Below are positions 838-60,263 of a stretch of 64,000 nt of DNA, one piece after another. Every line of letters begins with the position of its first letter. Positions within the stretch are counted from its first letter, which is position 1. A program made the position numbers and the translations under genes. The notes below the pieces were generated by a model. The model made no database searches. It saw only the letters and a program-made list of their open reading frames with translations, and was not told the DNA's origin. Origin of the DNA: an uncultured Acidobacteriota bacterium (lineage in GTDB: Bacteria > Acidobacteriota > Polarisedimenticolia > J045); contig CAVPDB010000002.1 of assembly GCA_963702545.1 (NCBI GenBank), positions 17,941 to 81,940 of the forward strand, read 5' to 3'.

Positions 838-2025
838 TCAGGCCCGGAAGAACCGCTCCATCAGCCCGTGCCCCGGATCGACGAGCAGCCCCGTTCGCCG
901 GGCTTCCGCCTCGGTGTAGCGCGTCCCGCCGTTGGGCGCGATCCCGCTCCCCGCGAAGCAGAAGGGGGGCGGCGTCGCGTCGTGGGTCTTCGTGCCGACC
1001 GGCGTCGGGTGGTCGGCGGCGACGAAGACGCGGTGGGGGCCGTGGGCGCGCAGAGCGGCGAGCAGCGGCCCGACGATCGCCTCGTCGATCCGCTCGAGCG
1101 CCCTGACCTTCTCGGCGGCGTCGCCCAGGTGGCCGGCTTCGTCCGCGGCCTCGACGTGGACCACGACCAGGTCGTGGTCGTCGAGCGCGCGCACCGCGGC
1201 CCGCCCCTTGCCGTCGAAGTCGGTGTCGATGTAGCCGGTCGCGCCGGGGACGTGGATCAGCTCCATTCCCATCCCGACCGCCAGGCCGCGCAGGATGTCG
1301 ACGCCGGTGATCAGCGCGCCGCGCACGCCGTGGCGCGCGGCGAACGGCTCGAGCGCGGTCGGCCGCCCCTGGCCCCAGAGCCAGATGTTCGTCGGCGCGT
1401 TCCGCCCTTCGGCGCGCCGTGCGCGCGTGACCGGGTGATCGGCCAGCAGGGCGGCGGCGCGCTGCATCAGGCCGCAGACCCGCTCTGCGCCCGTGCCGTG
1501 CGGCCAGTAGTCCGCGACCGGCTGGTCCGGGATGTCGTGCGGCGGCTGGCAGCGCAGCTCCATCGCCGCGGCGTCGGCCAGCAGCAGCAGGTTGCGGTAC
1601 GAGACGCTGGGGTGGAACTCGCACCCCTCCGCGCCGAACGCGGCGCCGAGGTCGGCCATGATCCGGTCGGCCTCGGGCTGCGTGATGTGGCCGGCGGTGA
1701 AGTCCTTCATCCGGCCGTCCTCGATCGTCACCAGGTTGCAGCGGAAGATCATCTGGTCCGGGCGCGCGCTCAGCCCCTTGGCGGCGGCTTCGATCGGCGC
1801 GCGGCCGGAGTAGAAGCGGTGCGGGTCGTAGCCCATCAGCGAGAGCGTGCCGACGTCGGTGCCGGGGGTGAAGCCCGCGGGGATCGTGACCGCGCAGCCG
1901 AGCTGGCCGGCGGCCGCCACCGCGTCCATGTGGGGGATGCGCGCCGCCTCCAGCGGCGTCCGGCCGTCGAGCTGGGGCAGCGGGAAGTCGGCGGCGCCGT
2001 CGGGGAGGATGATCGCGTACTTCAT
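838..2025 (-). CDS. apgM: 2,3-bisphosphoglycerate-independent phosphoglycerate mutase, archaeal/ApgM type
   Basis: Within ORF 838..2064(-), the internal Met [15 protein letters not shown]... is the conserved ApgM N-terminus; the ATG is at 2025..2023. The metalloenzyme-superfamily motifs run throughout, and the length is right at about 395 aa. Confidence 0.85.
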
Positions 2026-2102
2026 GGGCCCTCCGCTCCGCGAGCGAGCAGGCGATAGTATCATCGCGACGCGGCGAGTCCGCGACGCAGGAGCGAACGA
2101 AC

Positions 2103-15002: not shown

Positions 15003-16082
15003 TCAGTGCGAAGCCTGTGCGGGCGGGCGATTCCAGGAGCCGGCCGGTCTCACGGCACCGCCCCGCGGGTTGAAAACGACCCGCCAGACATCGTTGTCGA
15101 CACGCTCGGCGTTGACGGCAGGAGGCAGTTCGAAGCGCTCGCGGTCGCCCCCGAAGGTGAAAATCGTGGGGAACGGGCTGCCGGGCACGCCATCGACCAC
15201 GAGAGCATCGAAGTCGTACTTGACGTCGTCCGGATCGCTCGCGAGCCAGGGCGGCCCGAATGGCCTGCCGAGCCTCCACCAAAGGCGGCCATCAGTGCTG
15301 AGCCAGGCGTCGTTCGGATTCTGCGGCTCACCGTAGCCACCGAAGCAGGCGATCTGGTTGAGCACCAGAACGCACTGGTGACCGGGCCGCGGCGACCAGC
15401 CGGCGGACTCCGTCACGAGCTCCCACTCCTCGCCGTCTCTCGAGCGCCAGACGTCGTTGAAGTAGAGATCCCGCTCGGGCACGCAACCCGGGGCGCCGCC
15501 GCACGTGAAGCCGCGTTCGCCGCCGAGCAGATAGATGAAGCCGTCCTTGACCACGGCGGCTGCGCCGGCCCGCGGCTCCCACGGAGCGCTCGCCGTGACC
15601 TGCGTCCACTGCACGCCATCACGCGATTTCCAGACATCGTTGAAGAGGATCCTCCCCTGGCCGCCCGTGGACTGGTCGTCGCCCTGGCTTCCGCCGAAGA
15701 CGAAGATCTCTTCACCGTGCACGACCGCGCTCAGTCCCGCGCGGCCTTCCCATGCGGCGGCGGACGTGACCAGCGACCAGCTCTCCCCGTCGTCGCTCGT
15801 CCAGACGTCGCTGAAGAAGGTCGAGTTCGGGATGATCGGCAGACATGGGACGCCAGGCGGGTTGCCCGGACAGCCGAAGGGGAACTCCGGATTCGGCAGG
15901 ACATCGAAATTCTGGCCGCCGACCACGAGGAGCCGATCGTCGAACCGCAGGGCCTGGAAGTAGGCTCGGGCCGGCCACGCGGCGTCCGACGCAAGCTGCC
16001 ACGACTCGCCCAGATCGGTGCTTCTGTAGACGTCACCGTACAGGATCGTGTTGAACGGGCTGAATGGGCCTCGGCCACCCAT
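15003..16082 (-). CDS. Kelch-repeat (galactose-oxidase-like beta-propeller) protein; the N-terminus probably extends upstream to about 16293 through a frame shift
   Basis: 359 aa with repeated FNDVW.S.DG..W..V...A.W..R.g....V.....GG units. The same frame stays open and Kelch-like (SGWTRVVERAEWSPRAGLQAVEFEGNLYIMGG) upstream of the annotated ATG, back to a stop at about 16270. The ATG at 16293, which has a GGAGAAGAAGAG RBS, is in a different frame. Confidence 0.7.
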   Translation of the reverse strand: MGGRGPFSPFNTILYGDVYRSTDLGESWQLASDAAWPARAYFQALRFDDRLLVVGGQNFDVLPNPEFPFGCPGNPPGVPCLPIIPNSTFFSDVWTSDDGESWSLVTSAAAWEGRAGLSAVVHGEEIFVFGGSQGDDQSTGGQGRILFNDVWKSRDGVQWTQVTASAPWEPRAGAAAVVKDGFIYLLGGERGFTCGGAPGCVPERDLYFNDVWRSRDGEEWELVTESAGWSPRPGHQCVLVLNQIACFGGYGEPQNPNDAWLSTDGRLWWRLGRPFGPPWLASDPDDVKYDFDALVVDGVPGSPFPTIFTFGGDRERFELPPAVNAERVDNDVWRVVFNPRGGAVRPAGSWNRPPAQASH

Positions 16083-16476
16083 GATGTAGAGATTCCCCTC
16101 GAACTCGACGGCCTGCAGCCCCGCCCGCGGCGACCACTCCGCACGCTCGACGACACGCGTCCATCCCGATCCGGTCGAGAACGAAGCGTTCCGGCCCGCG
16201 GAACTCCCGCGCGGAGTCCCGGCGTAGGACGGATCGGTCGCAACAGCTGCGAAACGTGATCGCCATCGCGGCCAATACTGGACGGTATGTCATCTCTTCT
16301 TCTCCATCTCCCGCATCGACCGGCCCGGAAGCGGGCGCCTGATCATGGCGAGTCGCGGAGTATACGTCCCGAGCATGCTCTCGCCCATTCGAGCCGGTGC
16401 TGTCCTTCGCCAAGAGTGCGCCACGACGGCGCGTAAGGGAGGTCACGAAGTGACCGACTGAACGCCGCCATGCTGC

Positions 16477-17193
16477 ATGGGAGATGGGGGCGGGCTCCCC
16501 GGGAACGGATTGCAGGATCAGTTCCCAAACCAGCGGACGCCGCGTGGGGATGAGAGCCCAGGTGGTGAGCAGTCCGTGAAAAGGCGGGCAGGAGCCCGTC
16601 AGGTGTGGATCAGGAAGGCGAACGCGACCGCTGGGGATCCCGACGGTCGCGGATCGCATCGCGCAGATGGTGGTCAAGCAGACGTTCGAGCCGCTGGTGG
16701 AGCCGAAATTCCCCCCCGACCCTTTACGGCTATCGACGCGGCAAGTCGGCACTGGATGCGGTAGGAGTCGCGCGCGAGCGCTGCCGGCGCATGGACTGGG
16801 TCGTGGATCTGGACATCCGAGATTCCTTCGGGAGTCCGGACGACGATCTGCTAATGAAGGCGGTGAAGCACCATACGGAACTGACGTGGATCCATCTGTA
16901 CGTGGAGCGGTGGCTGCAAGCGCCGCTGCAGCATACGGATGGAACGCTGCAGGCCCGCACCGCGGGGACGCCGCAGGGGGGTGTGATCAGCCCGTTGCTG
17001 GCGAACCTCTTCATGCACTACGCGTTCGATGAGTGGATGCGGCGGCGACTTCCGGCCGTACCCTTCGAGCGGTACGCTGATGATGTCGTGATCCACTGTG
17101 CGAACCTGGCCCAGGCCCTGCAAGTGTTGGAGGCCGTTCGCGGTAGGCTGCGGGAGTGCAAGCTGGAATTGCACCCGGAGAAGACGAACCCCG
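16477..17193 (+). mobile_element. Group II intron-type reverse transcriptase (IEP) remnant: 5'- and 3'-truncated, with at least 2 frame shifts
   Basis: RT motifs are split over three frames. Frame 1: VWIRKAN. Frame 2: RPLGIPTVADRIAQMVVKQTFEPLVEPKFPP. Frame 0: YGYRRGKSALDAV...VVDLDIRDSF...GTPQGGVISPLLANLFMHYAFDEWM...YADDVVIHC...LELHPEKT. There is no RT-0 or maturase/En region; the coding sequence stops being RT-like exactly where the 79-bp repeat begins. Confidence 0.7.
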
Positions 17194-17272
17194 CGGTCGG
17201 CCGCTCCCCCTTCCTGCAGGCCCGCGGCTACGCGCTCCGCCTCATAATCCGCGGCTTGAATCGCTTATCTGC
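17194..17272. repeat. 79-bp direct repeat, copy 1 (2 mismatches to copy 2)
   Basis: cggtcggccgctcccccttcctgcaggcccgcggctacgcgctccgcctcatAatccgcggcttgaatcgctTatctgc. It is re-found at 19534..19612, exactly 2340 bp away. It contains the palindromes CCTGCAGG and CCGCGG (x2). Confidence 0.8.
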
Positions 17273-17282
17273 GCGGGCAGCC

Positions 17283-19283
17283 TCACGGACGTTTCGGTGC
17301 GACCTCGATCCGCGTCTCGGCCGCGATCGGCGCGGCGTCGCCAGCCGGCGACCACTCTATACGGTAGACCCAGGAGAGCGTCCCGTCGGCGACCTCGGGC
17401 ACTTCGAAACGGTCGACGATCCGTGTGCACGGCGCGTCGCTTGAGATCTCGGGCGACGTCGGCGTCCGGGTTCCGTCGGAGTGGATCAGCCAGGCGCGTA
17501 GGCTGGCAGGAACCGTCGGCCCGGGTCCACAGGCAAAGGTCGTCACTTCGACCGCGTCGCCCGGGGCGAAGGCGCCGATCACCGGCAGAGGTCCTTCCCC
17601 CCGCCGCGTCGCGACGCGCCTGGCCTGACGCCTCTTCGCCTCGCTCAGCGGCAGGCGCAGGTGGTGCTGCCCGGCCCGACGGACGACCGGGCCGCTCATC
17701 CCGGGTTTGCCCGGGTCGGCCAGAGTGATCTCCGCTCGCACGCCGGCGGCCCGCCCGGCCGTGGTGTCGCCGCAGTACGCAAGGAGATCGTACCGCCCGG
17801 GCGGCACCTCGACCTCGGCGCGGTGAAGCGCGAGGACACCGCGCGGCGAGAGGCCCCTCTCGACTTTCGCCGCGGAGAACTCCTCGAACACCCACTCCCG
17901 TCGCCCGCCGTCCTGGCGGAGAAGCGCGCCGACGCTCCATGAGGCCCTGCCCCCGTTCCCCGTTGGAAGCCAGTCGAGACCGTCGAGCACCGCCGCCACC
18001 TCGATCGCCACGAGCCATCGGCGGCCCGCCGGCTGGAGCGGGACGATCGCCGTCGCGACGGCGCCCCCGCTCGACCCGCCCGAGAAGGCGAGGGCGCGCT
18101 GCGCCGCCTCGTGCCAGCGGTCCGCGGGGCGCATCAGCGCCACGCGACGCCGCGCCGTGATTGGCGTGCCGCGGATGCGGACGACGATCGTGTGCAGTTT
18201 CCCGTCGGCCCGCTCCGGCGGACGCAGCGCGACGCGATAGATGCACGAGCACGCGGCCGACTCAGGTCGGGCGCGGTCGTCGTAGCGCACGCCGCTGAGG
18301 TCGGAGAGGTTGGCGCCGAGATTCGTGGTAAGCGGGGTGTAGATCTCGGCACGCGCAAGGGCGGCCGCCGAGCCAGCGCGCTCCATCGCGGTGATCGCGT
18401 CACCGACGTCCCACTCGCTGGCGGTCCGGTACAGACGGCTCGGGAAGAGGAGACCCCTCTGATCCAGCCACACCACCGCTTTTCGTCCGGGGACGGCCCC
18501 CAGCGCGCTCAGCAAGAGCCGGAGCATCTCGAGCGAGCGCCGTACGTGGCCAGCCTCGGCCTGCGCCGCGTTGGTGCACTCCTCGAAGCACGAGAGCTTG
18601 AGGCAACTCTCAGGATCGGGGTGATCGGCACAGGTCTTTAGGCTACCCTCCGCACAACGGCGACACTGGTCGATGCGGAAAGACTGCATCGCGGGGAACG
18701 GGTCGGCGAACCGGGGGTCCTCAAACGCCGCCTCGACCGCGGCGAGCAATCGGGCTTTCTCGGTCGTCATCGAACAGAGCTCGACGAGTTGGCCCTGGTG
18801 ATGAGCGTACGCGAGCCCCCGCGCTCCCTCCGGGTACGCCGCGCCGAGGAAGCGGCGCAACTCGTCGCGAGCCTGCAGCCGGTCACTGGGCGCAAGCTGG
18901 CTCATGTCGACGTACAGGACGAAGACCGGGAGCTCGGCCCGATCCGGCGCGTGGGCCGGCGGCTGTTGGCCCGCGCCTGCAACCGATCCGGCGCTCCCCG
19001 GCGGTGAGACGGCGTCCTCGCCCGGCGACGAGAGGGTGCTGCAGGCACACAGGTCGTCGACCGAGGTGATCTCTGCTGCGCGCAAGTCGATCGTCGCCGT
19101 GAACGCCTCCGCGGCAAGTCCTCGCAGCGGGATACCGTCCGCGTCGACGGCAACGACGTCGATCAGAAGGCGCCGAACGTCGACGTCCTCCCGCAGCATG
19201 CGGTCGGGCTGAGGCTCGGTCGCCCACCCGAGCGTCGCCAGCGCGACAACGAGTGGACCCGCAAACCAGCCACCTCCTAGCAT
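17283..19283 (-). CDS. VWA-domain protein of the 'VWFA-related acidobacterial domain' type, secreted
   Basis: 666 aa with a signal peptide (MLGGGWFAGPLVVALATLGWA). The N-terminal motif EDVDVRRLLIDVVAVDADGIPLRGLAAEAFTATIDLRAAEITSV matches the TIGR03436-like pattern VDVrLV.VDV.V.D..G.pv.gL..edF. It lies between the two 79-bp repeats. Confidence 0.6.
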   Translation of the reverse strand: MLGGGWFAGPLVVALATLGWATEPQPDRMLREDVDVRRLLIDVVAVDADGIPLRGLAAEAFTATIDLRAAEITSVDDLCACSTLSSPGEDAVSPPGSAGSVAGAGQQPPAHAPDRAELPVFVLYVDMSQLAPSDRLQARDELRRFLGAAYPEGARGLAYAHHQGQLVELCSMTTEKARLLAAVEAAFEDPRFADPFPAMQSFRIDQCRRCAEGSLKTCADHPDPESCLKLSCFEECTNAAQAEAGHVRRSLEMLRLLLSALGAVPGRKAVVWLDQRGLLFPSRLYRTASEWDVGDAITAMERAGSAAALARAEIYTPLTTNLGANLSDLSGVRYDDRARPESAACSCIYRVALRPPERADGKLHTIVVRIRGTPITARRRVALMRPADRWHEAAQRALAFSGGSSGGAVATAIVPLQPAGRRWLVAIEVAAVLDGLDWLPTGNGGRASWSVGALLRQDGGRREWVFEEFSAAKVERGLSPRGVLALHRAEVEVPPGRYDLLAYCGDTTAGRAAGVRAEITLADPGKPGMSGPVVRRAGQHHLRLPLSEAKRRQARRVATRRGEGPLPVIGAFAPGDAVEVTTFACGPGPTVPASLRAWLIHSDGTRTPTSPEISSDAPCTRIVDRFEVPEVADGTLSWVYRIEWSPAGDAAPIAAETRIEVAPKRP

Positions 19284-19533
19284 GACCGCGCGAGTGTATC
19301 AGGTCTCTGCCGTGTCCCCCTCGCTGATCCAGTGAGTACGCGACATCCCCGATCTCGGTTGTTTTCGCCTCCATGATCACTGCGGGCAGCGGGCCGGAAG
19401 GAGCCGCCGGCGACTGGAGGTCGGCCGCCACCCCCCGAATTCGGTCGGGGTCAGTCCGCCCAGGCTACTGCGTGGCGTTCGTCGTTGTCGCGCTGCCGCC
19501 AAGCCTCGGCCTTGCGGCGGGCGGCGGCTAGAC

Positions 19534-19612
19534 CGGTCGGCCGCTCCCCCTTCCTGCAGGCCCGCGGCTACGCGCTCCGCCTCATGATCCGCGGCTTGAA
19601 TCGCTCATCTGC
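19534..19612. repeat. 79-bp direct repeat, copy 2
   Basis: Same sequence as 17194..17272 except ataatc/atgatc and cttatc/ctcatc. It abuts the stop codon of the 19615..21363 gene. Confidence 0.8.
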
Positions 19613-19614
19613 CG

Positions 19615-21363
19615 TCAGGGAAACACGATGACGTACGTCGGCGCCGGTTCCGGGTCGGGCTCGCCCTTCCGGGGCCGGGTCGGGTCAATGTGGTCGCAGG
19701 GATCCTCCTCCGGCAATGAGGCCGCCTCCTCCGGCGTGAGCAGGCGTCCGCCGAGCGTCTCGCGCCCGTCGGGCGGGACCGGGGACGGCCGCGGGGGAGG
19801 ATCAACGCGCAGCCCCTCTTCGACGCGGCCGGTGCAGCGTAGGAACCAGCCGAGGTCGCCGAGGCGGGCGGCGCGTTCGTCGGCATCGACGGAGGTCGCG
19901 AGGAGCTCGCGCAGCAGCGCCTCGGCTTCCTCCTTCCGGCGGAGTGCCCACAGCGCGCGGGCCCACGATTCCATGAACCAGCGCTCGTGATCGCTATCGA
20001 GCCGAGGGCGGGTCCGGGCGCGGTCGCGGAGGAACCCGTAGTAGCGCTCGGCCCGCTCGGCAGCCGACCCGCGGTCGTCGCTGCCGTACGGCGGAAGCTC
20101 GTGGTCGATGCCGTGGCCTTCGACGTACGGCGGGCCGTCACCGAGCTCGGGCGGCATCGTCACCGCGAGCCGCCGAGCCGAGCCCGGTGCCCAGCGCGCC
20201 CGTGCGTGCCGGCGCGTGAGGACGAGCGCCGCGCCGCTCGCCGCGTCGACGCGCACCAGGCCGCGCGCGGAGTCGTGCACGACGACGAACGCGCCGTCCG
20301 GCGACCACGCCGGCCGGGATCGCGGCGTGTCGTCGCGCCGGAGCCAGTCCTGCCGCGGCGCGCGGCCGAGCGGCGCCGCCGCGAGCTGCTGCCCGGTCGC
20401 CGCGTCGAGCACGACGAGCGTCCCGTAGAGGTCACCGGAGCCCGAGCCGGCCGGGACCAGGCGCGTGGCCGCGACGCGCGTCCCATCGGGTGAGAAGGCG
20501 CCCCACGCCGTCCGCTCCGCGAGCACGCGGCGCTTTCCGCTCGCGAGTTCGTAGACGGCGAGCGTCGGCGTCCCGGAACCCGTCCCGAGGTCGTCGGAGC
20601 GTACCGGGGTCCACGCGGTGTAGGCGAAGGTGCGTCCGCCCGGAGCCCACGCGTCGAACGCGCGGGTGACGCGGTGCGGGTCGTCGTCCCGGCGCGAGAA
20701 GACCTGGGTGCATCCGGCCATCGGCTCGTCGTCGACGCCGGGCACGCGCTCGATCAGCGCCGTCAGGCCCCACCAGTTGGTGTAGGCGCCGCGCGGCGTC
20801 CCGTCGCCCCACGCGGCGAAGTCCGAGCCGTAGCAGAGCCGGGTCGTCCTGCCCGACGCGAGGTCCAGCGCGAAGAACTCGAAGCACGAGGTGCCGCAGT
20901 GGATCCAGAACACCAGGCGGCCGCGGTCGTCCCATCCGGCGAGCTGGACCGAGCGGATCCCGGTCGCGAGGACCGGGCTGCCGGGCGGCAACAGGTCACG
21001 GACGTTCGTTCCGTTGGCGCGTGCCGTCCAGATCGTGTCCCAGCCGTCGCCGGGGCGAGCCGCGACGAAAACGATGCCCGCGCCGTCCGGCGTCCACGCG
21101 ACCTGATCCGCCGGGTGCGCCGGCGTTCGCACGACGATCCGGGGGGACGCGAAGCCCGGCGCGTCTGCGATCCGCAGCGCGTCGGCGGTCGAGAACAGGA
21201 GGCTCGAGCCGTCCGGCGACCACGCGATCGCGCGCGCCGGCAACGAGGCGACGCTCGTGACGCCCGCGCCGAGACCGGGGCCGGCGGGCGCGGCGGGAGC
21301 GATACCAGCGGCGGCGAAGGCCACGACGAGGACGAGGCACGCACGAAGCGGCGATCGGATCAT
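19615..21363 (-). CDS. Secreted TolB-like / PD40 beta-propeller protein with a C-terminal helical (TPR-like) region
   Basis: Within ORF 19615..21447(-). The start was chosen at MIRSPLRACLVLVVAFAAAGIAPAAPA (ATG 21363, GAAGGAA RBS). Repeated WSPDG...F / AWTPDG... units are typical of PD40/TolB propellers. Confidence 0.65.
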   Translation of the reverse strand: MIRSPLRACLVLVVAFAAAGIAPAAPAGPGLGAGVTSVASLPARAIAWSPDGSSLLFSTADALRIADAPGFASPRIVVRTPAHPADQVAWTPDGAGIVFVAARPGDGWDTIWTARANGTNVRDLLPPGSPVLATGIRSVQLAGWDDRGRLVFWIHCGTSCFEFFALDLASGRTTRLCYGSDFAAWGDGTPRGAYTNWWGLTALIERVPGVDDEPMAGCTQVFSRRDDDPHRVTRAFDAWAPGGRTFAYTAWTPVRSDDLGTGSGTPTLAVYELASGKRRVLAERTAWGAFSPDGTRVAATRLVPAGSGSGDLYGTLVVLDAATGQQLAAAPLGRAPRQDWLRRDDTPRSRPAWSPDGAFVVVHDSARGLVRVDAASGAALVLTRRHARARWAPGSARRLAVTMPPELGDGPPYVEGHGIDHELPPYGSDDRGSAAERAERYYGFLRDRARTRPRLDSDHERWFMESWARALWALRRKEEAEALLRELLATSVDADERAARLGDLGWFLRCTGRVEEGLRVDPPPRPSPVPPDGRETLGGRLLTPEEAASLPEEDPCDHIDPTRPRKGEPDPEPAPTYVIVFP

Positions 21364-21598
21364 CAGCGTTCCTTCGGTAGAAGTATAGCAATGAGACGGG
21401 GTCTCTCGCTCGCCGGACATCGGCACACCCGCGCGATCAAGCGTCATTCACGACCACGGCCGGACGGATACGAGCCCGAAGTGACGTTCTCATTGTCAGA
21501 CCGACTGCGTTACGGAGCCGGGTCAGACTCCGAGCTTTGCCAGGAACGTGGATGGTGCGCGGTCCCTGAGCACAGTGTGCGGTCCGCAGGGATCGTAC

Positions 21599-23398
<1,800 letters not shown>

Positions 23399-23526
23399 GC
23401 GGGAGCGGCCCCGTCCGGGGCGGAAGGCCCCGGGAAACGGCCGATTATAGGGGGCGGGGGGCCGGGGGGCACGTTGGCCCCCCGGACACCCCGGGCTCCG
23501 AGCCGACCGGGCGGCGGGCGGTGAGG

Positions 23527-24453
23527 TCAGCCGCCGTTGATCACGGCGTCGGGGATCTCGTACCGCTCGCCGCCGATCTGGACGATCGACAGGTCCTCCT
23601 GCCGGCTGGTGCGGAACTCGCCGGTGTCGGCCTGGCTCTTGTCGTAGCCGGTGGCGAGCCCCTTCTCGAAGAAGATCACCCGCTTGCGGCCGTCGGGCCT
23701 GGTCACGGTGACCGTCCCGCTGCCGCCCCCCCGGCGGGTCACGCCGAAGGGGCACGAGCGGGTCGGCTGCCCGCCGCCCATCGAGCAGGGGATCTCGCCG
23801 GTGGCGTGAAAGTCGGTGCCGGCCACCTTGGCGTCGCCGGGCGGGCTCGAGGCAGCGGCCCCGCCCTTCTGACAGTCCAACTCCGGAACATGGACGATCG
23901 AGGCGTAGCGGCCGTCCTCGGTGCGAACCGTGATGCAGCGGCCCGTGGAGTTTTCTCTCCAGTTGCTGTACTTGGCGTCTCCCGAGGTCGAGCCATTGCG
24001 GTACGAATAGCCGCGCTGCAGGAGCGCGTCCTCGCCGGACGACGCGCGCGCGCCGACGAGATCCCGCAGGGCGTGCGGCGTGTCACCGGTTTCGGAGCCG
24101 GAGCCGGAGGACGCGCCTGAGTCGGCGTTCCAGCGCACGATCAGCTTCTTGCCGTCCCACTTGTACTCTTGCCCGTTCCCCGTCACCGTGCGGACCACGG
24201 TCTTGCCCTTCTCATCCTTGAAGTGGTCGGGCTTGTCGGCCGGGCTCAGCTCGATCCGGTCGCCGTTGCGCAGTTCGATCGAGACGTAGCCCTGGCGCTG
24301 GGAGAAGGTGCAGGGGCCGGTCGCGCCCTGCTTGGTTTCGCCGTCCTTGCGCATCTCGCACATCGCTTCGGTGGTGTCGGCCAGCGCGGCGCCGCTCCCG
24401 GCGACAACGGACAGGAGGAACAGGGGCAGGGCGAACATCTTGACTGTCTTCAT
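23527..24453 (-). CDS. Hypothetical secreted protein
   Basis: 308-aa ORF with a clear signal peptide ([25 protein letters not shown]), several Cys, and Gly/Ser-rich segments. I recognise no domain. GC is slightly lower than the neighbouring genes. Confidence 0.55.
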
Positions 24454-29558: not shown

Positions 29559-30809
29559 TCAGACCCAGCCGCGGAGCTTGACCGCCTCGGCGACCCGGTT
29601 GACCGAGACGAGGTAGGCGGCGAGACGCAGGTGGACCTTCTCCTTGATCATCATGTCGTAGACCGCGTTGAAGGCGTTGGTCATCGCGTGGTCGAGGCGC
29701 TTGTGGACCTCTTCCAGGGACCAGTAGTAGTTGTAGGTGTTCTGCACCTGCTCGAAGTAGGAGACCGTCACGCCGCCGGCGTTGGCCAGGAAGTCGGGCA
29801 GCAGCAGGATGTTCTTCGAGGCCAGGACCTTGTCGGCTTCGGGGGTGGTCGGGCCGTTGGCCAGCTCGAGCACCACCTTGGACTTGATCTTGTCGACGTT
29901 GCGGTCGGTGATCTGGCCCTCGATCGCGGCCGGGATCAGCACGTCGCACTCGACGTAGAGGCAGTCGGCGGAGGCGGCGAGCGTCTCGGCCCCCTTGAAC
30001 CCCTTGATCGATCCGGTCTCGGTGAAGTGCTTGTGCAGCGCCGCGAAGTCCAACCCCTTCGGGTTGTACGCCGCGCCGTCCCACTCGCCGACGCACACGA
30101 CCTTGCCGCCGATCTCCTCGCTGATGATCTTGGCCGCGAACTAGCCGGCGTTGCCGAAGCCCTGGATCGAGTAGGTCGCCTTGGAGAGGTCGAGGCCGAT
30201 CTTCTTGGCCGCCTCGCGCAGCACGTAGAGGCCGCCGCGCGCGGTCGCGTCGCCACGCCCCTTGGAGCCGCCCAGCGCCAGCGGCTTGCCGGTGATCACG
30301 CCCGGCTCGGAGTGCCGCGTGATCATCTCGAACTCGTCCATCATCCACGCCATGATCTGCGGGGTGGTGTAGACGTCCGGCGCAGGAACGTCCTTGTGCA
30401 CGCCCAGGATCGGGCCCAGTGCGCGGACGTAGGCGCGGGCCAGCCGCTCCTTCTCGCCCTCGCTCATCTCCTTCGGGTTGCAGATCACGCCGCCCTTGCC
30501 GCCGCCCAGCGGGATGTCCACCACCGCGGTCTTCCAGGTCATCCAGGCCGCGAGCGCGCGCACGGTGTCGATCGTCTCGTCCGGATGCCAGCGGATGCCG
30601 CCCTTGGCCGGGCCGCGCGCGATGTTGTACTGGACGCGGAAGCCGTGGAAGATCTTCGTCTTGCCGTCGTCCATCTTCACGGGAACGAAGAAGTGGTGCT
30701 CCATCTGCGGGACGCGCAGGAACTGGTGCGTGGCGTGGTCGAGGCCGAGGCGTGCGGCGGCCTCGTCCAACTGCGCCTGCGCGATCTTGAAGGGATTGAG
30801 CTCGGACAT
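29559..30809 (-). CDS. gdhA: NADP/NAD glutamate dehydrogenase (GdhA) interrupted by an in-frame TAG at 30143..30141
   Basis: ORFs 30141..30881(-) and 29559..30098(-) are in the same frame. Together they read ...SIQGFGNAG[TAG][31 protein letters not shown]..., where a conserved Tyr (TAC) is expected at the stop. The start was chosen at [17 protein letters not shown] (ATG 30809, GGAGG SD). Confidence 0.8.
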
Positions 30810-30859
30810 GGGTTTCCTCCGGTCGAACAGGGATGGGCGGGTGTCCCGGGCTGTCGGGA

Positions 30860-30873
30860 CGAAACGCGTTTCG
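30860..30873. promoter_or_regulatory. Perfect 14-bp palindrome CGAAACGCGTTTCG about 50 nt upstream of the gdhA start (candidate operator)
   Basis: Read directly from the sequence (ctgtcgggaCGAAACGCGTTTCGatccg). It sits in the gdhA 5' region on the minus strand. Confidence 0.4.
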
Positions 30874-31016
30874 ATCCGCAATCGGTGGGGAGGGGAATTC
30901 TAATCCGTTCGGGCGAGGCGCACTAGGCCCCCCAAAGCGTTTGCTGAAATCGCCTTTTGGGCGATTGAAGTGCGATTAACAGGCCCACCGAACCGATTAG
31001 TCCCGGGCGGTCCAGG

Positions 31017-53186: not shown

Positions 53187-56100
53187 TCAGTCCCGCTCCA
53201 CCCGCCCCGCGGACAGGAACCACAGCTCGGCCCGCGGCGGCGGGTCGGGGAAGAGGCCCCGCAGCGACTCGACGTAGCGGGCGAGCTGCGGGCGGTAGCG
53301 CTCGACGGCCGCGTCGCGCGCGGCGGTGTAGTCCGGCCCGGCGGGGTCGGGGAGCGAGTCGGTCTTGTAGTCGGCGACGACCAGCGCACCGTCCTCGGCG
53401 CGGTAGAGCAGGTCGATCGTGCCGACCCACGCGCCGGTCGGCTGGTCGTCGGCGTCGCCGTCGGGGGCGGCGAGCAGCGGGACCTCGCGTCCCAGCACGC
53501 GGTCGCGCAGGGTGGCCAGGGCGTCGAGCGCGCCGTTCCCCGCCATCCGGTCGAGCAGCGCCTCGGCCTCGGCGCGGGCGCCGTCGCGGAGTTCGGGAGA
53601 GAGATCGGGCGGCAGGTACCCCGCCAGGCGCCCGCGCTGGCGTACGCGCTCGGCCGCCGGGTCGGCGGCCAGGTCCCAGGCCTCGAGCGCGCGGTGGATC
53701 GCGGTGCCGACGGCGAGGCGCTCGTCGCGCCGCGTGTCGTCGGAACCCGCGGCGGGCCCCGCCGGCAGGAGGGGCGGCCCGGCCTCCGGCTCGTCCTCTC
53801 CGTCGCGCGCGGCGTGGCCTGCAGCGTGGGCCGCGCCGGAGGGCGTCGCCGTGGCGGGGCGGCGCATGCGCGCGCCGGCGTCCCGTCGCGCGTCGGCGAG
53901 CAGCGCCAGGTCGCGCACGGCGGCGGCCTCGGACGCGGCGGACGCCTCCGCGCGCGCGGCCGCGGCGGGCGGGCGCAGCGCCGCCGGGTCGCCCGCGGGC
54001 GCGAGGCGCCACGGGACGCCGTGCGCGTCGGTCGCGGCGCCGCCCGCCTCTACCATCGCGGCCAGCGCGTCCCCGCCTTCACGCCGCGCCAGCAGCGCCA
54101 GGTGCGACCCGGCGGGCGCGGCCCGGCCGGTCGCCGGGTGCGGCCAGGCGCCGGCGAGCACCATGCTCACCCGCGCGCGCGTCGCCGCCACGTAGAGCGT
54201 CCGGACCGACTCGGCCGCCGCGATCTCGGCCTCCTCCCGCTCCACCGCGTGGAAGCCCAGCCCGGGGACGCCGAGCAGGCGGACATCCCAGCCGCCGCCG
54301 TCGCGGGGCGCGACGCGGTTGTCGTGGGATCGACTGCCGCGGGACCGGCTGCCTCCCGTGCCGTGGTGCAGGTCGACGACGAAGACGTGATCGAAGTCCA
54401 GCCCCTTGGCCTTGTGGATCGTCAGCACGCGCACCGCGTCGAGCGTGTCGTCTCCCGGCGCCCCCTCGCGCTCCTCGCGCCCCTCGGCGACGCCGCCGCG
54501 CAACTCGCGCAGGACCCCCTGGATCCCTTCCGCGCCGGAGAGCCCCTCCAGCAGGCGGCGCAGGAAACGCTCCATGTTCGCCAGGCGGTGCGGTCCCAGG
54601 TAGCGCGCCGCGGCGAACTCCTCGGCCAGGACGAGGGCCGCGAGCGTCTCGACGAACCGGTCCGCCGCGTCCCCGGACAGGGACCGGCGCAGCTCGGCGA
54701 GCGCGCGCACGGCGGCCTTCGCGGCCTGCGGCCAGTCCGCGACCCGCTCGATGCCGGGGATCGCGGCCCGCTCGACCTCGCGCGCGACGGTGTCGATCGC
54801 GGCGTCGAGGCGCGCGAAGGCGGCGTCGTCGGGGCGGTCGAGCCGCCGCAGCTCCTCCACCGCCCCGCTGCTCCAGAGGCCGGGCAGCGCGGCGTCCGGC
54901 ACGCCGCCCCACGGCGAGCGCAGGAAGGTGACCAGCGCCAGCTCGTCGAGCGGGTCGGCGATCGCGCGGACGAGCGCCCCGGCGTCGATGACCTCGCGCC
55001 GCCGGAAGTACTCGCGCTCGCGCTCGACGACGAACGGCAGCCCGCGCGCGCGCAGCGCCGCGAGGTAGGGCTCCAGCCCGGAGGTGGCGCGGAGCAGGAT
55101 CGCGATCCGGCCCAGCGAGGCGCCCTCCCGGCGCAGCGCGTCGATCTCCGCCGCGACGGCGTCGGCCTCGACCTCGCGCGCCTGCCGGGCTCGCGTCGGC
55201 TCGCCCGCGTCGAAGCGGTCGCGCGCCCAGGACGCCCAGTACTCCACCGGGGGGCGTGCGCCCTCCGGCTCCGGCGGCCGATCCGGGGCGAGTTCCTGGA
55301 ACGGCGCCTGCCGGTCGCCGTCCTCGACCAGCAGCGGGCGCGCGATCCGCGTCACCTCGTCCAGCACGGCGGGCTGCGAGCGGAAGTTCACCACCAGCGG
55401 GAGGCGCTCGCCCCCGGCCTGCTCGACCCGGCGCGCGAACTCCCGGTACGCCGCGAGGCTCGCGTGGCGCCAGCCGTAGATCGACTGCTTCGGGTCGCCG
55501 ACCAGCATCAGCCCGGGACGCTCCCCGGGCGGGCCCTCCAGCGCGAGCCGCCGGACGATCTCGCACTGCAGGCGGTCGGTGTCCTGGAACTCGTCCACGA
55601 CGAGCTGGTCGATCTCGCGGCGCACCGCGGCGGCGACCGCGTCGTTGCGGAGCAGCACGGCCGCGTCGCGGATCAGCGCAGCGAAGGGGGAGATGCCGCG
55701 GCAGCGCAGTGCCTTCTCGACCTCCGCGAGCAGCGGGCCGAGCACCGCGCGGGCCGCGGCGAGGACGTCGGGATCGACCTGGCGCAGCGACTGCAGCAGG
55801 CCGTGCAGCGCGCCCGCCGCCGGGGCCAGCTCGCGGGCGACGGGCGCGAGCACGGCGGATTCGGTCTCGCCGTCCGACGGGTCGAGAGCGCTCCACCCCG
55901 CGAGCCGCTTCAGCAGCTTGTCGTCGAAGTGGTCGGACGCCAGGTCCACGAGCTGCCCGGCCGTCTCCGCGCCCGCGGCGGCCGCCGCGACCGCGTCGAG
56001 CGCGTCGCGGAGGCGCGGTCCCGCCTTGAGCAGTCGCGCCGCGGCGCCGGCGAAGCGGCTCGCGGACGAGATCGGCGATCTCCGCGGCGCGGCAGCCGAG

Positions 56101-56838
56101 TTCCTGCGCGACGGCGCGTGCGCGCGCGTCGGACAGCGGGTCGTCGTCGAGGGCCTCGGGCGGCACGGCCTCGGTCGCGAGCTCCTCGAGCGCCGCCGCG
56201 AGCGCCGCCGGCCCGTGCCCCTGCGCGGCGAGCTCGATCCACCGCTCGTCGCCCGCGGGCCCGAGCGCCTCGGGCAGGCGGCGCGCCATCACCTCCTCGA
56301 CCACGCCGGCGAGGAGCGTCCCCTCGGCGTCGACCTCGAAGGCCGGGTGCAGTCCCGCTTCGAGCGCCCGCGCCGCGAGCAGCCGGCGGCAGAAGGCGTG
56401 GATCGTCGCGACCTCGAGCCGGTCCTGCACGGCGAGCAGCGCCGCGGCGCGCTCGCGCCGGCGGTCGTCCGGCCCGGGGAGGTCGGCGAGCGCCAGTCCG
56501 ACCGCGTCCACGCCGCGGTGCACGCAGGCGAGCATCCGCGCGATCCGCTCCGCCATCTCGGCCGCCGCGCGGTCGGTGAAGGTGATCGCGACGACGCGCT
56601 CGGCCGTGCGGCGCGCGATGCGGTCCGGGGCGTCCGCGCCGGCGGAGGCGCCGACCGCCGCCGCCGCCCGATCCCAGCCCGGCCCGAGCAGCCAGGCGAC
56701 GATCCGCGACGCGACGACCGTCGTCTTGCCGGTGCCGGCCCCGGCGTCGAGCAGCAGCGGGCGCTCGAATTCGGTGCGCGCGACGCGGCGGGAGCGCTCG
56801 TCGTCCGCGCGGGCCGCGGCCAGTTCGGCGGGCGTCAC
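53187..56838 (-). CDS. addA: ATP-dependent helicase/nuclease subunit A (AddA; UvrD-like helicase + C-terminal PD-(D/E)xK nuclease); apparent 1-nt frameshift near 56055
   Basis: GTG start at 56838 overlapping the addB stop as GTGA. N-terminus VTPAELAAARADDERS...LLDAGAGTGKTTVVASRIV...ITFTDRAAAEM... in the frame of ORF 54079..59334. From about 56050 it continues in ORF 53187..55949 (RFAGAAARLLKAGPRLRDAL...VVDEFQDTD, VGDPKQSIYGWR, LTIHKAKGLDFDHVFV, LYVAATRA, nuclease ADYKTD). Confidence 0.8.
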
Positions 56839-59800
56839 GGGGCGTCCTCGGTGCCCAGCCGCATCACGGCGAGCAGTGCCGCCAACCGCGGGTCGGACGG
56901 TGCGCCGGAGGCCCCCCCCGCGCTCGAGCGTTCGAGCGCGCCGCGGACGGCCGCACGCCAGCGCAACCGCATCCCGCTGTCGTCGACGAGGCATGCGGAG
57001 CGCACCTCGCAGTAGGCGCAAGCGGGGTTGGCCTGCTCCTGGAGGCTCTCGACGCGAGGGAAGAAGCTCCCCGCGCGGGCGGCGCCGAGCAGCGTGGCGA
57101 CGGCGCGCGGCAGCCCGCCCGTCACCGCGTCGTCGTCGGACGCGATCGCGGCCTCGACGCGGCGCGGGTCGTCCTCCTGCTTCAGGGACACGTAGCGCCC
57201 GGTCTTGGCGCCGGGCCCGTCGGCCGCGGCGTAGGCCGCGCCCTGCAGCAGCTCTCCGCGCGCGACCGCCTGAGCCACTTGTTCGCGGCGCCTGTCGGAC
57301 CTGACCGCCGTGAACGGCAGCTTCCCCGTCTTGTAGTCGGTCAGGACCAGTGCGCCGTCCTCGGCTCGGCGGTCGACGCGGTCCGCGCGGAAGCGCAGCG
57401 CGACCGTCCGTCCTTCGCCGGCCGCGATCGTCGCCACGCCGTCGACCTCGGTCCCGAGCACGCGCGGCCCGTCGTCCGCCCAATCCAGCGCGATCGCCCG
57501 CTGGACGAACGGGAGCGCGCGCCGCGCCAGCGCCTCGTGCAGTCCGGGCAGCGTGATCCCGGCCTCGAGCGCGACCTTTCGCGCGGCGTCGCGCGCCGCG
57601 CTCTCGACGCTCGCGGCGGGGGGCCGGCGCAGCGCGACCGGCTCGGCGGCGGCCAGCTCGGCGAGCACCTCGGGACGGCGCCCGACCTGGTCCGCGACGA
57701 GGCGCTGCAGTGTGGCGTGCACCACGGCCCCGACGCTGGGAGGATCGGGCTCGGGCAGCACGGCGCGCGGGTCGGGCGGCGGCGCGAGACCGAGCGTCCG
57801 CTCGAGGAACGCCTTCCACGGGCAGCGCGCGAGGCGCTCGACGGTGGTCACCCAGGGATCGTCGGCGGCGAAGTGCGACCCGCCGGCGCGCGGCGCGAGG
57901 AAGCCGAAGAGGGGGCCGGCGCCGCGGCTCTGCGGCGGTGCGTCCCACTCTTCGAGCGCCTGCCGCCGGGCGCGCGCCAGCGCGGCGCGGTCGAGGCCGT
58001 CCAGCGCGCGCGCGGCGGCGGGCAGCCGGCGCGCCGCGTCGCTCCAGGCGAGCGGCGCGAGGCGCTCGACCAGCTCGAGGTCTCCCGCGAGCGCGGCGCG
58101 CTGCAGGTGCTCGGCGGCCGTCAGCGCGCGGCCGAGCCGCACGGTCCGGTCGAGCGCTTCGCCGCGCGGCCGCGCCACCGCGCCGGGCTCCAGCGCCGGC
58201 CGCTCCAGCCGCACCCGCTGCACGAAGGGCGAGGGGTCCAGCACCTTGCCGTCGTCGTCCGCGCGCTGCCAGGAGATCGTCACGACCGGTGCCGCGGCGG
58301 CGAGCTGCGCGAACAGGAAGCGCTCCTCGTCGCCGCCCCACGACTTCTCGGGCAGGTGCGGCAGCGCTGCGGCCAGCCGGCGCCGCGTCGCGTCGGAGAG
58401 CAGCGGGTCCTCGCCCTGCCGCCGCGGAAAACGGTCGCGGTTGACCCCCGCGAGGAAGAGGCGGGAGAAGATCAGGCCGCGGGCGCGCGCGACGTCGAGA
58501 AGCTGGACGCCGCCCCCGGCGCCGCCGAGCGCGTGGCGCGTCGCGGCCTCGACGCGCGGCCGGGCCAGCAGCAGGAACTCCTCGCGGGAGAGCGGCTCTC
58601 CGGGTGCGGCCTCCTCGCCGAGCGCGTCGAGCGCGCCGGTCCAGGCGGCCACGGCCGCCGGATCGTCGGCCAGCAGGCCGGCGCCGAGCGCGCGCGCCGC
58701 GTCGAGGAAGCGCGCCAGGGGCGCGGGAGAGGGCCACGCGGCGACGCGCTCCGCCGTGCCCCGCGCCGCGGCGAGCGCCGCGCGCAGGGCGGCCCCCGGG
58801 ACGCGGCGGGCGCGGGTCTCGAGCGCGTCGAATTCCGCGTCCGGCGGCTCCGCGCCGTCCCCGTCCGCGTCGCTGCCGTTCCAGCCGCCCGCCTCGTCCC
58901 CCTCGCCCGGCGCGTCCCGCTGTTTCGCAGCGACCGCCATCCGCACCGGGAGGCGGTAGTTGTCCTCGGCGTCGAGCACCGCCGCGAGGTCGACGCGCGC
59001 GGCGTCCTCCAGCCGCGCCACGCCCAGCGCGCGCAGCGCGAGCCGCAGGTCGTGCCGGCCGGCCGCGCCGGCGACCGAGCCCTCCGCGGCGTCGAGCCAG
59101 GCGTCGACCGGAGCCGACCCGGCGCGCTCGATCACGACGAGCAGCGCCTGCAGCCGCCGCGCCGCCGGCCGCAGCCCGCCCGGCTCGTCGCCGCCCGAGA
59201 ACGGCACGCCCAGCCGCTCGAACCAGCGCCGGAAGGGAAGCTCCCAGCCCGCGAGGCTGCGGACGACGACGCCGATCTGCTCGGGAGCGGGCGGAGGGGC
59301 CGTCGGCGGGGCGCTCGCGGGCGCGTGCAGCCACTCGCGGATCCGGTGCGCGATCTCGCGCGCCTCGGCGTCGCGGCCGGCGGCGTGGAAGAGCTCCAGC
59401 GTCGTCGCGCCGGCGGCGCCGGCGGTCTCGGTCCGCTCGCGCGGCAGGCCCGTCAGCCCCAGCCGCGTCTCGAACCGCTCGCGGAAGGCGTTGCCCGCGT
59501 CGGGCGCTCCGTCGTCGCGCGCCGGGTCGGGCGGCTCGTCCAGCAGCAGCGTCGCCGCGGGGAGCGCGAGCAGCGCGCGCAGCAGCGTCGTCGCGGCCCC
59601 GGTGGCGTCGGCGAAGCCGTGGACGAGGAGCGCACGGGCGGGGAGCGCGGCGGGGCCCTGCTCCGCGAGGATCGCCGCCGCGCGCCGCAGCGCGTCGGCC
59701 GGGCGGCCGAGACCCAGCGCGCGCATTGCAGCAGCGGTCCCGGTCGCGGTGCGCAGCACTGCCGCGGTGCGCCGCGCCTCCGGCGTGCGGCGGGCGCCGC

Positions 59801-60263
59801 CCGGGATCGCCTCGAGCGCGGCGTCCAGCGCGGCGTCGTCGAGCCCCGCGCTGTCGAGGTCGCGCACGGAAGCCGCGACCGCGGCGTAGCCGTCCTCCAG
59901 CCCGCCGAGCCGTTCGACCAGCGCGTCGTGCTTCGCCGCCTCGCGCCGCACGAGGATCTCGAAGAAACCGCCGTCGGCGGGGGCGCGCTCACCGGTGCGC
60001 TCGAGGATCTCTCGCGCGACGGCCCAGAGCGTCTGGATCCGCAGGCCGAGCAGCGTCGGCCCCAGCTCCCGGGCGAGCACGCGCGCGAGATGCCGGCGCA
60101 GCGTGCCGGAGGCGACGATCAGCAGGACAGGGCGGGCGAGCAGCGACGGATCGCGGCGGGCGTCCTGGACGAACGGGCGCAGCGTCTCGATCAGCTGCCC
60201 CTCGACCGCGCGCGGACCCCGGCCGACGATCACCCGCGGCCCGCGCTCTCCCCCGTTCGCCAT
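56835..60263 (-). CDS. addB: ATP-dependent helicase/nuclease subunit B (AddB) with C-terminal RecB-type nuclease and Fe-S Cys cluster
   Basis: 1142-aa intact ORF. C-terminal LVLTDYKTGK motif and CAYCEVRSAC. The N-terminal half is an inactivated helicase-like fold. Confidence 0.75.
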   Translation of the reverse strand: MANGGERGPRVIVGRGPRAVEGQLIETLRPFVQDARRDPSLLARPVLLIVASGTLRRHLARVLARELGPTLLGLRIQTLWAVAREILERTGERAPADGGFFEILVRREAAKHDALVERLGGLEDGYAAVAASVRDLDSAGLDDAALDAALEAIPGGARRTPEARRTAAVLRTATGTAAAMRALGLGRPADALRRAAAILAEQGPAALPARALLVHGFADATGAATTLLRALLALPAATLLLDEPPDPARDDGAPDAGNAFRERFETRLGLTGLPRERTETAGAAGATTLELFHAAGRDAEAREIAHRIREWLHAPASAPPTAPPPAPEQIGVVVRSLAGWELPFRRWFERLGVPFSGGDEPGGLRPAARRLQALLVVIERAGSAPVDAWLDAAEGSVAGAAGRHDLRLALRALGVARLEDAARVDLAAVLDAEDNYRLPVRMAVAAKQRDAPGEGDEAGGWNGSDADGDGAEPPDAEFDALETRARRVPGAALRAALAAARGTAERVAAWPSPAPLARFLDAARALGAGLLADDPAAVAAWTGALDALGEEAAPGEPLSREEFLLLARPRVEAATRHALGGAGGGVQLLDVARARGLIFSRLFLAGVNRDRFPRRQGEDPLLSDATRRRLAAALPHLPEKSWGGDEERFLFAQLAAAAPVVTISWQRADDDGKVLDPSPFVQRVRLERPALEPGAVARPRGEALDRTVRLGRALTAAEHLQRAALAGDLELVERLAPLAWSDAARRLPAAARALDGLDRAALARARRQALEEWDAPPQSRGAGPLFGFLAPRAGGSHFAADDPWVTTVERLARCPWKAFLERTLGLAPPPDPRAVLPEPDPPSVGAVVHATLQRLVADQVGRRPEVLAELAAAEPVALRRPPAASVESAARDAARKVALEAGITLPGLHEALARRALPFVQRAIALDWADDGPRVLGTEVDGVATIAAGEGRTVALRFRADRVDRRAEDGALVLTDYKTGKLPFTAVRSDRRREQVAQAVARGELLQGAAYAAADGPGAKTGRYVSLKQEDDPRRVEAAIASDDDAVTGGLPRAVATLLGAARAGSFFPRVESLQEQANPACAYCEVRSACLVDDSGMRLRWRAAVRGALERSSAGGASGAPSDPRLAALLAVMRLGTEDAP

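Follow-up and report, generated by a model that had tools for sequence, protein, structure and literature searches.

A short direct repeat at the joints of a mosaic locus beside lepA in an uncultured Acidobacteriota bacterium

A 64,000-nt stretch of DNA from an uncultured Acidobacteriota bacterium (GenBank assembly GCA_963702545.1, contig CAVPDB010000002.1, positions 17,941 to 81,940 of the forward strand; hereafter the window) contains two almost identical 79-bp sequences in direct orientation. These sequences, R1 and R2 (collectively R), bracket a single gene, and R1 adjoins the remains of a reverse transcriptase (RT) gene. How did such a repeat come to stand on both sides of one gene, and what kind of element is it? 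An initial annotation, made from the sequence alone, had offered three candidates: an element similar to repetitive extragenic palindromes (REPs) or MITEs (miniature inverted-repeat transposable elements), att-like recombination sites bracketing the gene, or a remnant of the intron or mobile element that brought the RT. The explanation preferred here, to which we give about even confidence, is that R belongs to the dispersed repeats, has a low copy number, is restricted to one lineage and served as the place where segments recombined. The features concerned are as follows.

17194..17272, plus strand: R1, the first copy of the repeat, found by repeat search (leftward, the third copy R3 described below matches 3 more nt, from 17191)
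19534..19612, plus strand: R2, the second copy, 77/79 identical to R1, with a strain variant in the contig L003
17273..19533, minus strand: the bracketed segment X (2261 bp), composed of a 10-nt spacer, the gene of a 666-amino acid (aa) VWFA-related protein (17283-19283) and a 250-nt upstream region (19284-19533)
16416..17193, plus strand: a decayed group II intron fragment, delimited by Rfam, by its relatives and by comparison with the intron L090
19613..21417, minus strand: the TolB-like gene module, with the gene at 19615-21366 (582 aa) and weak PD40/TolB-propeller matches

A repeat search of the window returned R1 and R2 as one two-copy family of 79 nt (97% identity, 77/79) on the same strand with a start-to-start distance of 2340, which confirms the pair as first annotated. 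Each half of R, with up to 3 mismatches allowed, matches at R1 and R2 alone in the 64 kb, and blastn-short and nhmmer also give these two as the sole copies in the window; none of 100 dinucleotide shuffles matched R. The two copies differ at repeat positions 53 (A in R1, G in R2) and 73 (T in R1, C in R2). Their edges are sharp, because the bases directly outside are already unlike at both ends (G versus C at -1, and G versus C at +1). Between the end of R1 and the stop (17283-17285) of the 666-aa open reading frame (ORF) on the minus strand there are 10 nt, and between the end of R2 and the stop (19615-19617) of the TolB-like minus-strand ORF there are 2 nt, so that the coordinates bear out the reported distances. 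The unit also contains, as had been described, CCTGCAGG at repeat positions 20-27 and two CCGCGG motifs at 29-34 and 56-61 with a 21-nt spacer, although CCGCGG is frequent in the window (2.6 per kb). The same layout of R1 and R2 is found in the independent assembly L003 (ENA ERZ25039459 contig_75615; 98.7% identical over 8.8 kb), and it is therefore not an assembly artefact.

When the 32-aa translation of R1 was compared by phmmer with 1.84 billion representative proteins, the only matches were the self-hit of L003 and one further protein, P0151 (E 6.5e-5). The contig of P0151, L091 (ENA ERZ27247688, 754 bp), comes from another metagenome and carries a third copy, R3, at positions 236-314, which is 92% identical to R1 over 79 nt and has ends that agree within ~3 nt. 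R3 has flanks unrelated to those in the window: its left side consists of 140 nt and a 75-nt repeat named U, and its right side of a DUF5131 gene that abuts R3 and is 5'-truncated, without roughly the first 90 profile positions. R3 is upstream of this gene fragment on the same strand and not at a gene 3' end. The same R ends are thus found in at least three unrelated contexts in related uncultured genomes, two of the copies abut a truncated mobile-element gene (RT, DUF5131), and a 36-mer, CGGCCGCTCCCCCTTCCTGCAGGCCCGCGGCTACGC, is invariant in all R copies. In the initial annotation, a specific insertion or recombination event was to be favoured if these two copies were the only ones and relatives had an empty site; since R3 exists, the first half of that argument fails.

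In the window, unrelated sequences meet exactly at the edges of R: the RT is cut after HPEKT on the left, and the TolB-like gene ends on the right. On the left, the RT protein alignment stops at ...LELHPEKT (codon ACG, 17184-17186), 7 nt before R1, in agreement with the observation that RT-likeness is lost at R1; beyond this point relatives read IVYCKD...FDFLGYTFRPR and the window reads NPAVGRSPFLQ..., and 17187-17193 is the junction sequence between the RT end and R1. On the right, the TolB-like gene behaves as a one-gene module. Relatives of its product were found by homolog search within the same species group only, and the gene itself recurs in a minimum of three further genomic contexts (at least four counting the window), with a nucleotide identity of 94-95%. 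Homology reaches from ~15-50 nt before the start codon to 2-13 nt past the stop, and in all comparisons its match to the window module ends at 19611-19613, the right edge of R2 (homolog spans: L086, 9912-11391; L087, 10082-11860; L088, 399-2216; L089, 831-2657). In L086, from a 744,869-bp contig of another metagenome-assembled genome (MAG), the copy is 5'-truncated at a short repeat. In L087, from the same sample as L003, the gene lies between a protein-kinase gene and an FG-GAP gene, and in both L088 and L089 it is followed by a 96-aa gene and then by an HTH_3 gene. R was found at none of these other TolB-like loci. Since RT homology ends before R1 and TolB-like homology ends at R2, both outer edges of R1-X-R2 are independent breakpoints.

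Between the two breakpoints, segment X encodes the 666-aa protein as its sole product; it contains no recombinase and has no terminal inverted repeats. The protein, first annotated as VWA, has no Pfam match and a sub-threshold match to TIGR03436 acidobact_VWFA (42.5 bits versus a cutoff of 81), and its relatives in the homolog search are only ~30% identical. Both 'VWA' and 'TolB-like' are tentative gene labels, weakly supported by such sequence matches. The 250-nt region between R2 and the VWFA-related gene contains a 10-bp perfect palindrome, CCGAATTCGG, between C/G runs (19431-19460), a possible terminator hairpin, without a U-tract, of the TolB-like gene.

The wider surroundings of the repeat pair are brought out by comparison with L003, for which three further features are needed.

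15004..21600: island shared with L003 at 0-0.9% divergence (the L003 contig ends at the left limit)
21599..23755, minus strand: lepA, a core gene next to the island, with 3.85% divergence from L003
15003..16289, minus strand: a Kelch-repeat gene, across the intron fragment from R1

The island is ~99.6% identical to L003, whereas lepA is 3.85% divergent and the genes beyond it 8-30%; the divergence jumps to ~3-4% exactly at the lepA stop and climbs further beyond. This difference between the island and lepA suggests that 15004-21600 was shared recently, as a transferred or recombined island. Within it, the intron pseudogene has diverged by 0.9%, the last two single-nucleotide polymorphisms (SNPs) being 3 and 10 nt left of R1. 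There are 2 SNPs in the 2001 nt of the VWFA-related gene and none in a total of 571 non-coding nt, made up of R1, the 250-nt region upstream of that gene, the 10-nt spacer and the spacer between the TolB-like gene and lepA. At positions 52-53 of R2, the window has TG and L003 has AA, versus TA in R1, which makes two independent adjacent changes, one per strain. This patchiness of SNPs would fit an endpoint of recombination at the left edge of R1, without being proof of one. Position 73 is unlike between R1 and R2 in both strains, and the duplication is therefore older than the strain split. Outside these two genomes, the best lepA matches among 185,579 species genomes (GTDB) are Acidobacteriota MAGs at 67-68%, too distant for a synteny comparison. 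The longest lepA ORF has 718 aa, homologs align from residue ~120 only, and the gene call in L003 has 599 aa; the N-terminal extension is probably untranslated.

Taken as a whole, R is a discrete non-coding unit of ~77-82 bp in an uncultured Acidobacteriota-related lineage. It occupies the joints of an island that lies downstream of lepA, is a mosaic and was recently exchanged. To judge from this architecture, the joints would have been formed by recombination at R copies, either through a crossover between dispersed copies or through Campbell-type insertion of an R-bearing circle with the VWFA-related gene. Either route would place a direct R on each side of the 2.26-kb segment, with foreign flanks flush with the R ends. 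As a consequence, homologous recombination between R1 and R2 could loop out a 2340-bp unit of one R and the VWFA-related gene. IS26-type units and other repeat-mediated loop-out units are similar in that a gene segment between direct repeats can excise or insert by recombination; they differ from this locus, where R has 79 bp and encodes nothing and where no circle or amplification was observed.

Other short repeats are found at breakpoints of the TolB-like gene in related genomes. The repeat family S (~65-95 nt, containing ...CCCCGTCCTCCCCGCCGATGCTACGCTGAGCG...) coincides exactly with the point at which homology of that gene ends on its 5' side there (L086, 9806-9899 and 14519-14841; L087, 6951-7051 and 7288-7351 as an inverted pair; L088, 337-402; L089, 770-834) and is absent from the window. 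Homology of R to S looked suggestive by eye, and it was rejected as not significant (z 0-2). The repeat U (~75 nt; GCGTTCCGAACG..GAGCCAATCCTCC..TTTTCGAAC...GGTTAACG), which stands 140 nt from R3, is found near the pair of HTH_3 and 96-aa genes in related loci (L091, 23-97; L086, 16417-16492; L088, 1-57). Related genomes also hold insertion sequence (IS) genes of the rve type and further short repeats.

Several points count against recombination at a dispersed repeat. What is observed is the architecture, from which we infer the recombination event and its direction. R has no structural hallmarks of the described repeat classes, and its dispersal is thus unexplained. Copies are few, with two in the 64 kb of the window (both direct), none in 43 kb of L086 and L087 and one in L091; the lack of any further copy in ~62 kb speaks, by our Poisson estimate, against a number above ~250 per 5-Mb genome. 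The 24-mer CCTGCAGGCCCGCGGCTACGCGCT, with which genome and metagenome contigs were scanned, had no exact match in genome contigs and two in metagenome contigs (L001 and L002), both of them due to chance, located within coding regions and dissimilar in their flanks. Because this 24-mer spans variable position 41, R3-type copies are missed, and the zeros exclude R1/R2-type copies only. Both halves of R had no match in viral contigs, and blastn of R against plasmids gave weak partial matches only (50 nt at ~80%). Neither an empty site nor a deletion variant was found in the clusters of the TolB-like protein or of the RT-R1 read-through ORF, and the two genomes that hold the locus, the window and L003, are both occupied.

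R might instead be a non-autonomous transposable element (MITE-like, or similar to a palindrome-associated transposable element, PATE) moved in trans, with three independent insertions and adjacent deletions that truncated the RT and DUF5131 genes. This would fit the three contexts with the same ends at 92-97% identity, the two copies that adjoin truncated mobile-element genes, and the IS (rve) genes and other short repeats of related genomes. R resembles MITEs in its length (50-500 bp range), in being non-coding with defined ends, and in its unrelated contexts in plastic regions. It differs from them at the ends, which are not mutual inverted repeats (the 5' end is CGGTCGGCCGCTCC, and the reverse complement of the 3' end is GCAGATAAGCGATTC) and are not bordered by a target-site duplication (flanks CCCCG/GCGGG for R1, TAGAC/CGTCA for R2 and CTCCG/TTTTC for R3). 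Homology, moreover, never resumes beyond any copy, unlike the continuous flanks of a simple insertion.

The comparison with REPs and their inverted doublets (REPINs) has a similar outcome. R is short, extragenic, located just past stops and present in several contexts, and REPs are known rearrangement substrates; yet R is ~80 nt long as opposed to 20-40 nt for a REP and has no REP-associated tyrosine transposase (RAYT) nearby. REPs number tens to hundreds per genome, often as inverted doublets; in the sequences covered here, R has at most a low copy number and forms no such doublets. Both strands of both copies fold no more stably than shuffles (z +0.2 to +1.1), so no palindrome folding above shuffles is seen. 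Compensatory pair changes were absent from alignment folds of 4 sequences, in which the substitutions of R3 break predicted pairs. Across the window, ~50 coding-like ORFs (at least 90 aa) were scanned and none has a recombinase, transposase, integrase or RAYT domain; the genes are otherwise those of an ordinary chromosome (nuo operon, AddAB-like nuclease genes, ABC transporters, lepA). We consider a transposable element unlikely. Of the proposed REP/MITE-like element, the dispersed nature survives, with R3 in an unrelated context, while the palindrome, terminal inverted repeats and target duplications are absent.

A second alternative takes R1 and R2 as attL/attR-like scars, or as a long target duplication, from a single insertion of the VWFA-related gene, R being a recombinase site. 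As in Campbell integration, direct repeats flank an insert made of one gene and its upstream region, and after a loop-out one copy would be left. The outer edges are both breakpoints, and the single R1/R2 difference fixed in both strains (position 73) suggests a recent duplication. Against these likenesses, there is no integrase in the 2.26-kb insert or in the scanned window ORFs, and no tRNA or tmRNA was found at the repeat site as a target. The third copy has flanks that match neither side of the locus, which is unexpected for an unoccupied attB, and the protein collection holds no empty-site ORF variant. The attC cores RYYYAAC and GTTRRRY are absent from both copies and the 10 nt on either side of them, on either strand. 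Hence the earlier proposal of att-like sites round the gene keeps its direct bracketing repeats and lacks a recombinase, a tRNA, an empty site and related flanks at R3; as an explanation, we regard it as rather improbable. Two further candidates were also rejected. A tRNA or tmRNA derivative was set aside because none was detected at the site. A dif-like XerC/D site, judged by eye, has a CATAA arm and no XerD arm, and the site is hypervariable.

Selection on R as a cis element, rather than recombination, forms a third alternative, which we hold to be quite improbable. R would then be a C-rich stretch similar to a Rho utilization (rut) site that loads Rho to block antisense transcription or read-through into minus-strand 3' ends, or else a protein-binding site. 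In agreement with this, the plus strand is rich in C (43%, with 25% G; C/G 1.7, the lowest 2.5% of 79-nt windows) and less stably folded than shuffles, both window copies are at gene 3' ends, and R1 is identical in two strains. However, R2 was substituted twice independently (2/79, versus ~0.14% in the surroundings), R3 is not at a gene 3' end, and R contains no promoter-like site. Neither R nor its immediate surroundings contain, on either strand, the GC-rich stem-loop with T-run of an intrinsic terminator; together with the folds of both strands, this upholds the earlier view that a simple intrinsic terminator is unlikely. A cis element also leaves the meeting of unrelated sequences at the R ends unexplained. 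Positions 52-53 of R (window 17245-17246 and 19585-19586) are hypervariable, with TA, TG, AA and GC in the four distinct copies. The 8 variable sites of R have, as R1 letters, 6 T, 1 A and 1 G, a T excess that is marginal (~p=0.03 by our binomial estimate, with GC bias allowed for).

A still less probable idea, which we consider very doubtful, is that this lineage has an unrecognised system, other than an integron, by which modules of one gene each are shuffled at their 3' ends, with R as its crossover site. If true, such a system would explain why the breakpoints of the TolB-like and VWFA-related genes are 2-10 nt from the stops, and why S and U are located at breakpoints of the TolB-like gene in related genomes. 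Integron cassettes are a described parallel to this arrangement, in which an ORF is followed at once by a repeat of the 60-140-bp range, twice running and in the same orientation. The parallel does not extend to the details: R lacks the R''/R' cores and the hairpin of attC, no intI was found, the second unit includes an upstream region of 250 nt, and in its other contexts the TolB-like gene has no R after it. The locus as a whole also differs from an integron array in having lepA upstream and the intron remnant and Kelch gene downstream.

The last alternative, that R is retroelement sequence, is prompted by the RT next to R1. Rfam identifies group-II-D1D4-2 at 16486-16604 (89.7 bits), directly upstream of the RT ORF, which has RVT_1 and the QGGVISPLLANL motif and whose nearest relatives, at 82% identity, are intron RT/maturases. 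When compared with a full-length relative intron, L090 (D1D4-2, ORF and D5/D6), homology is confined to 16416-16607 and 16622-17144. About 360 nt of the RT N-terminus are deleted (16607/16622), the 5' part of the intron (domain 1) is missing, and the pseudogene has a frameshift near 16700; the ORF of L003 is broken up still more by an additional base at 16975. Judged by its sequence, the RT is a multiply damaged, dead group II intron pseudogene. Rfam gives no D5/D6 and has no match within R at E<=10, and blastn of R against the L090 intron gave no match. R is open in the RT frame, with 85% GC at third codon positions. A coding remnant was tried and rejected: the codon log-likelihoods of -2.4 and +3.3 are in the wrong-frame range (mean 2.4), the true coding mean being 13.9.

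An origin of R as part of the group II intron, or in a diversity-generating retroelement (DGR) whose template and variable repeats the RT would serve, is accordingly hardly credible and is rejected: its attractions are that R1 adjoins the RT and is open in its frame, that an RT gene stands beside one ~80-bp copy while the other is near a gene 3' end, and that R1 has T, or A if read on the minus strand, at 6/8 variable sites, against which the RT is a dead one of group II intron type, its relatives diverge after EKT, the differences are not confined to adenines of one strand, and R2 is outside its would-be target ORF, past the stop and on the opposite strand. The suggestion that R is a remnant of the RT's own intron can be dropped for the same reasons, the more so as R2 and R3 have no adjoining intron. 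R is not intron sequence and is functionally unconnected to the dead RT next to R1.

Three observations elsewhere in the window concern other genes. A glutamate/leucine dehydrogenase gene (29559-30881) appears split into an N-terminal domain (30141-30881) and a C-terminal part (29559-30098), which could reflect a frameshift, a pseudogene or a sequencing error. ARAGORN reports a 'tRNA-???' with a 2-base anticodon at 1004-1095, inside a phosphoglycerate mutase ORF (838-2064, minus strand); since Rfam has no tRNA there, the call is probably a false positive. The AddAB-like helicase-nuclease pair at 53187-60263 (UvrD and PD-(D/E)XK) has a 42-nt stretch in common, with 86% identity (53362 and 57328).

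Returning to recombination at a dispersed repeat, if this explanation is right, R marks, and probably mediates, the joining of segments in a flexible island beside the core gene lepA. One false lead is removed, as the repeats are neither a DGR-like nor an intron-related feature of the adjoining RT. What is unusual is that R lacks the palindrome, the terminal inverted repeats and the target duplication of described classes; in kind, the finding is unsurprising. R would represent a new family of short dispersed repeats that are confined to one lineage and stand at mosaic junctions. The feature is real, if modest, and would help to interpret the mosaic structure and the MAG assembly breaks in this poorly sampled Acidobacteriota-related lineage.

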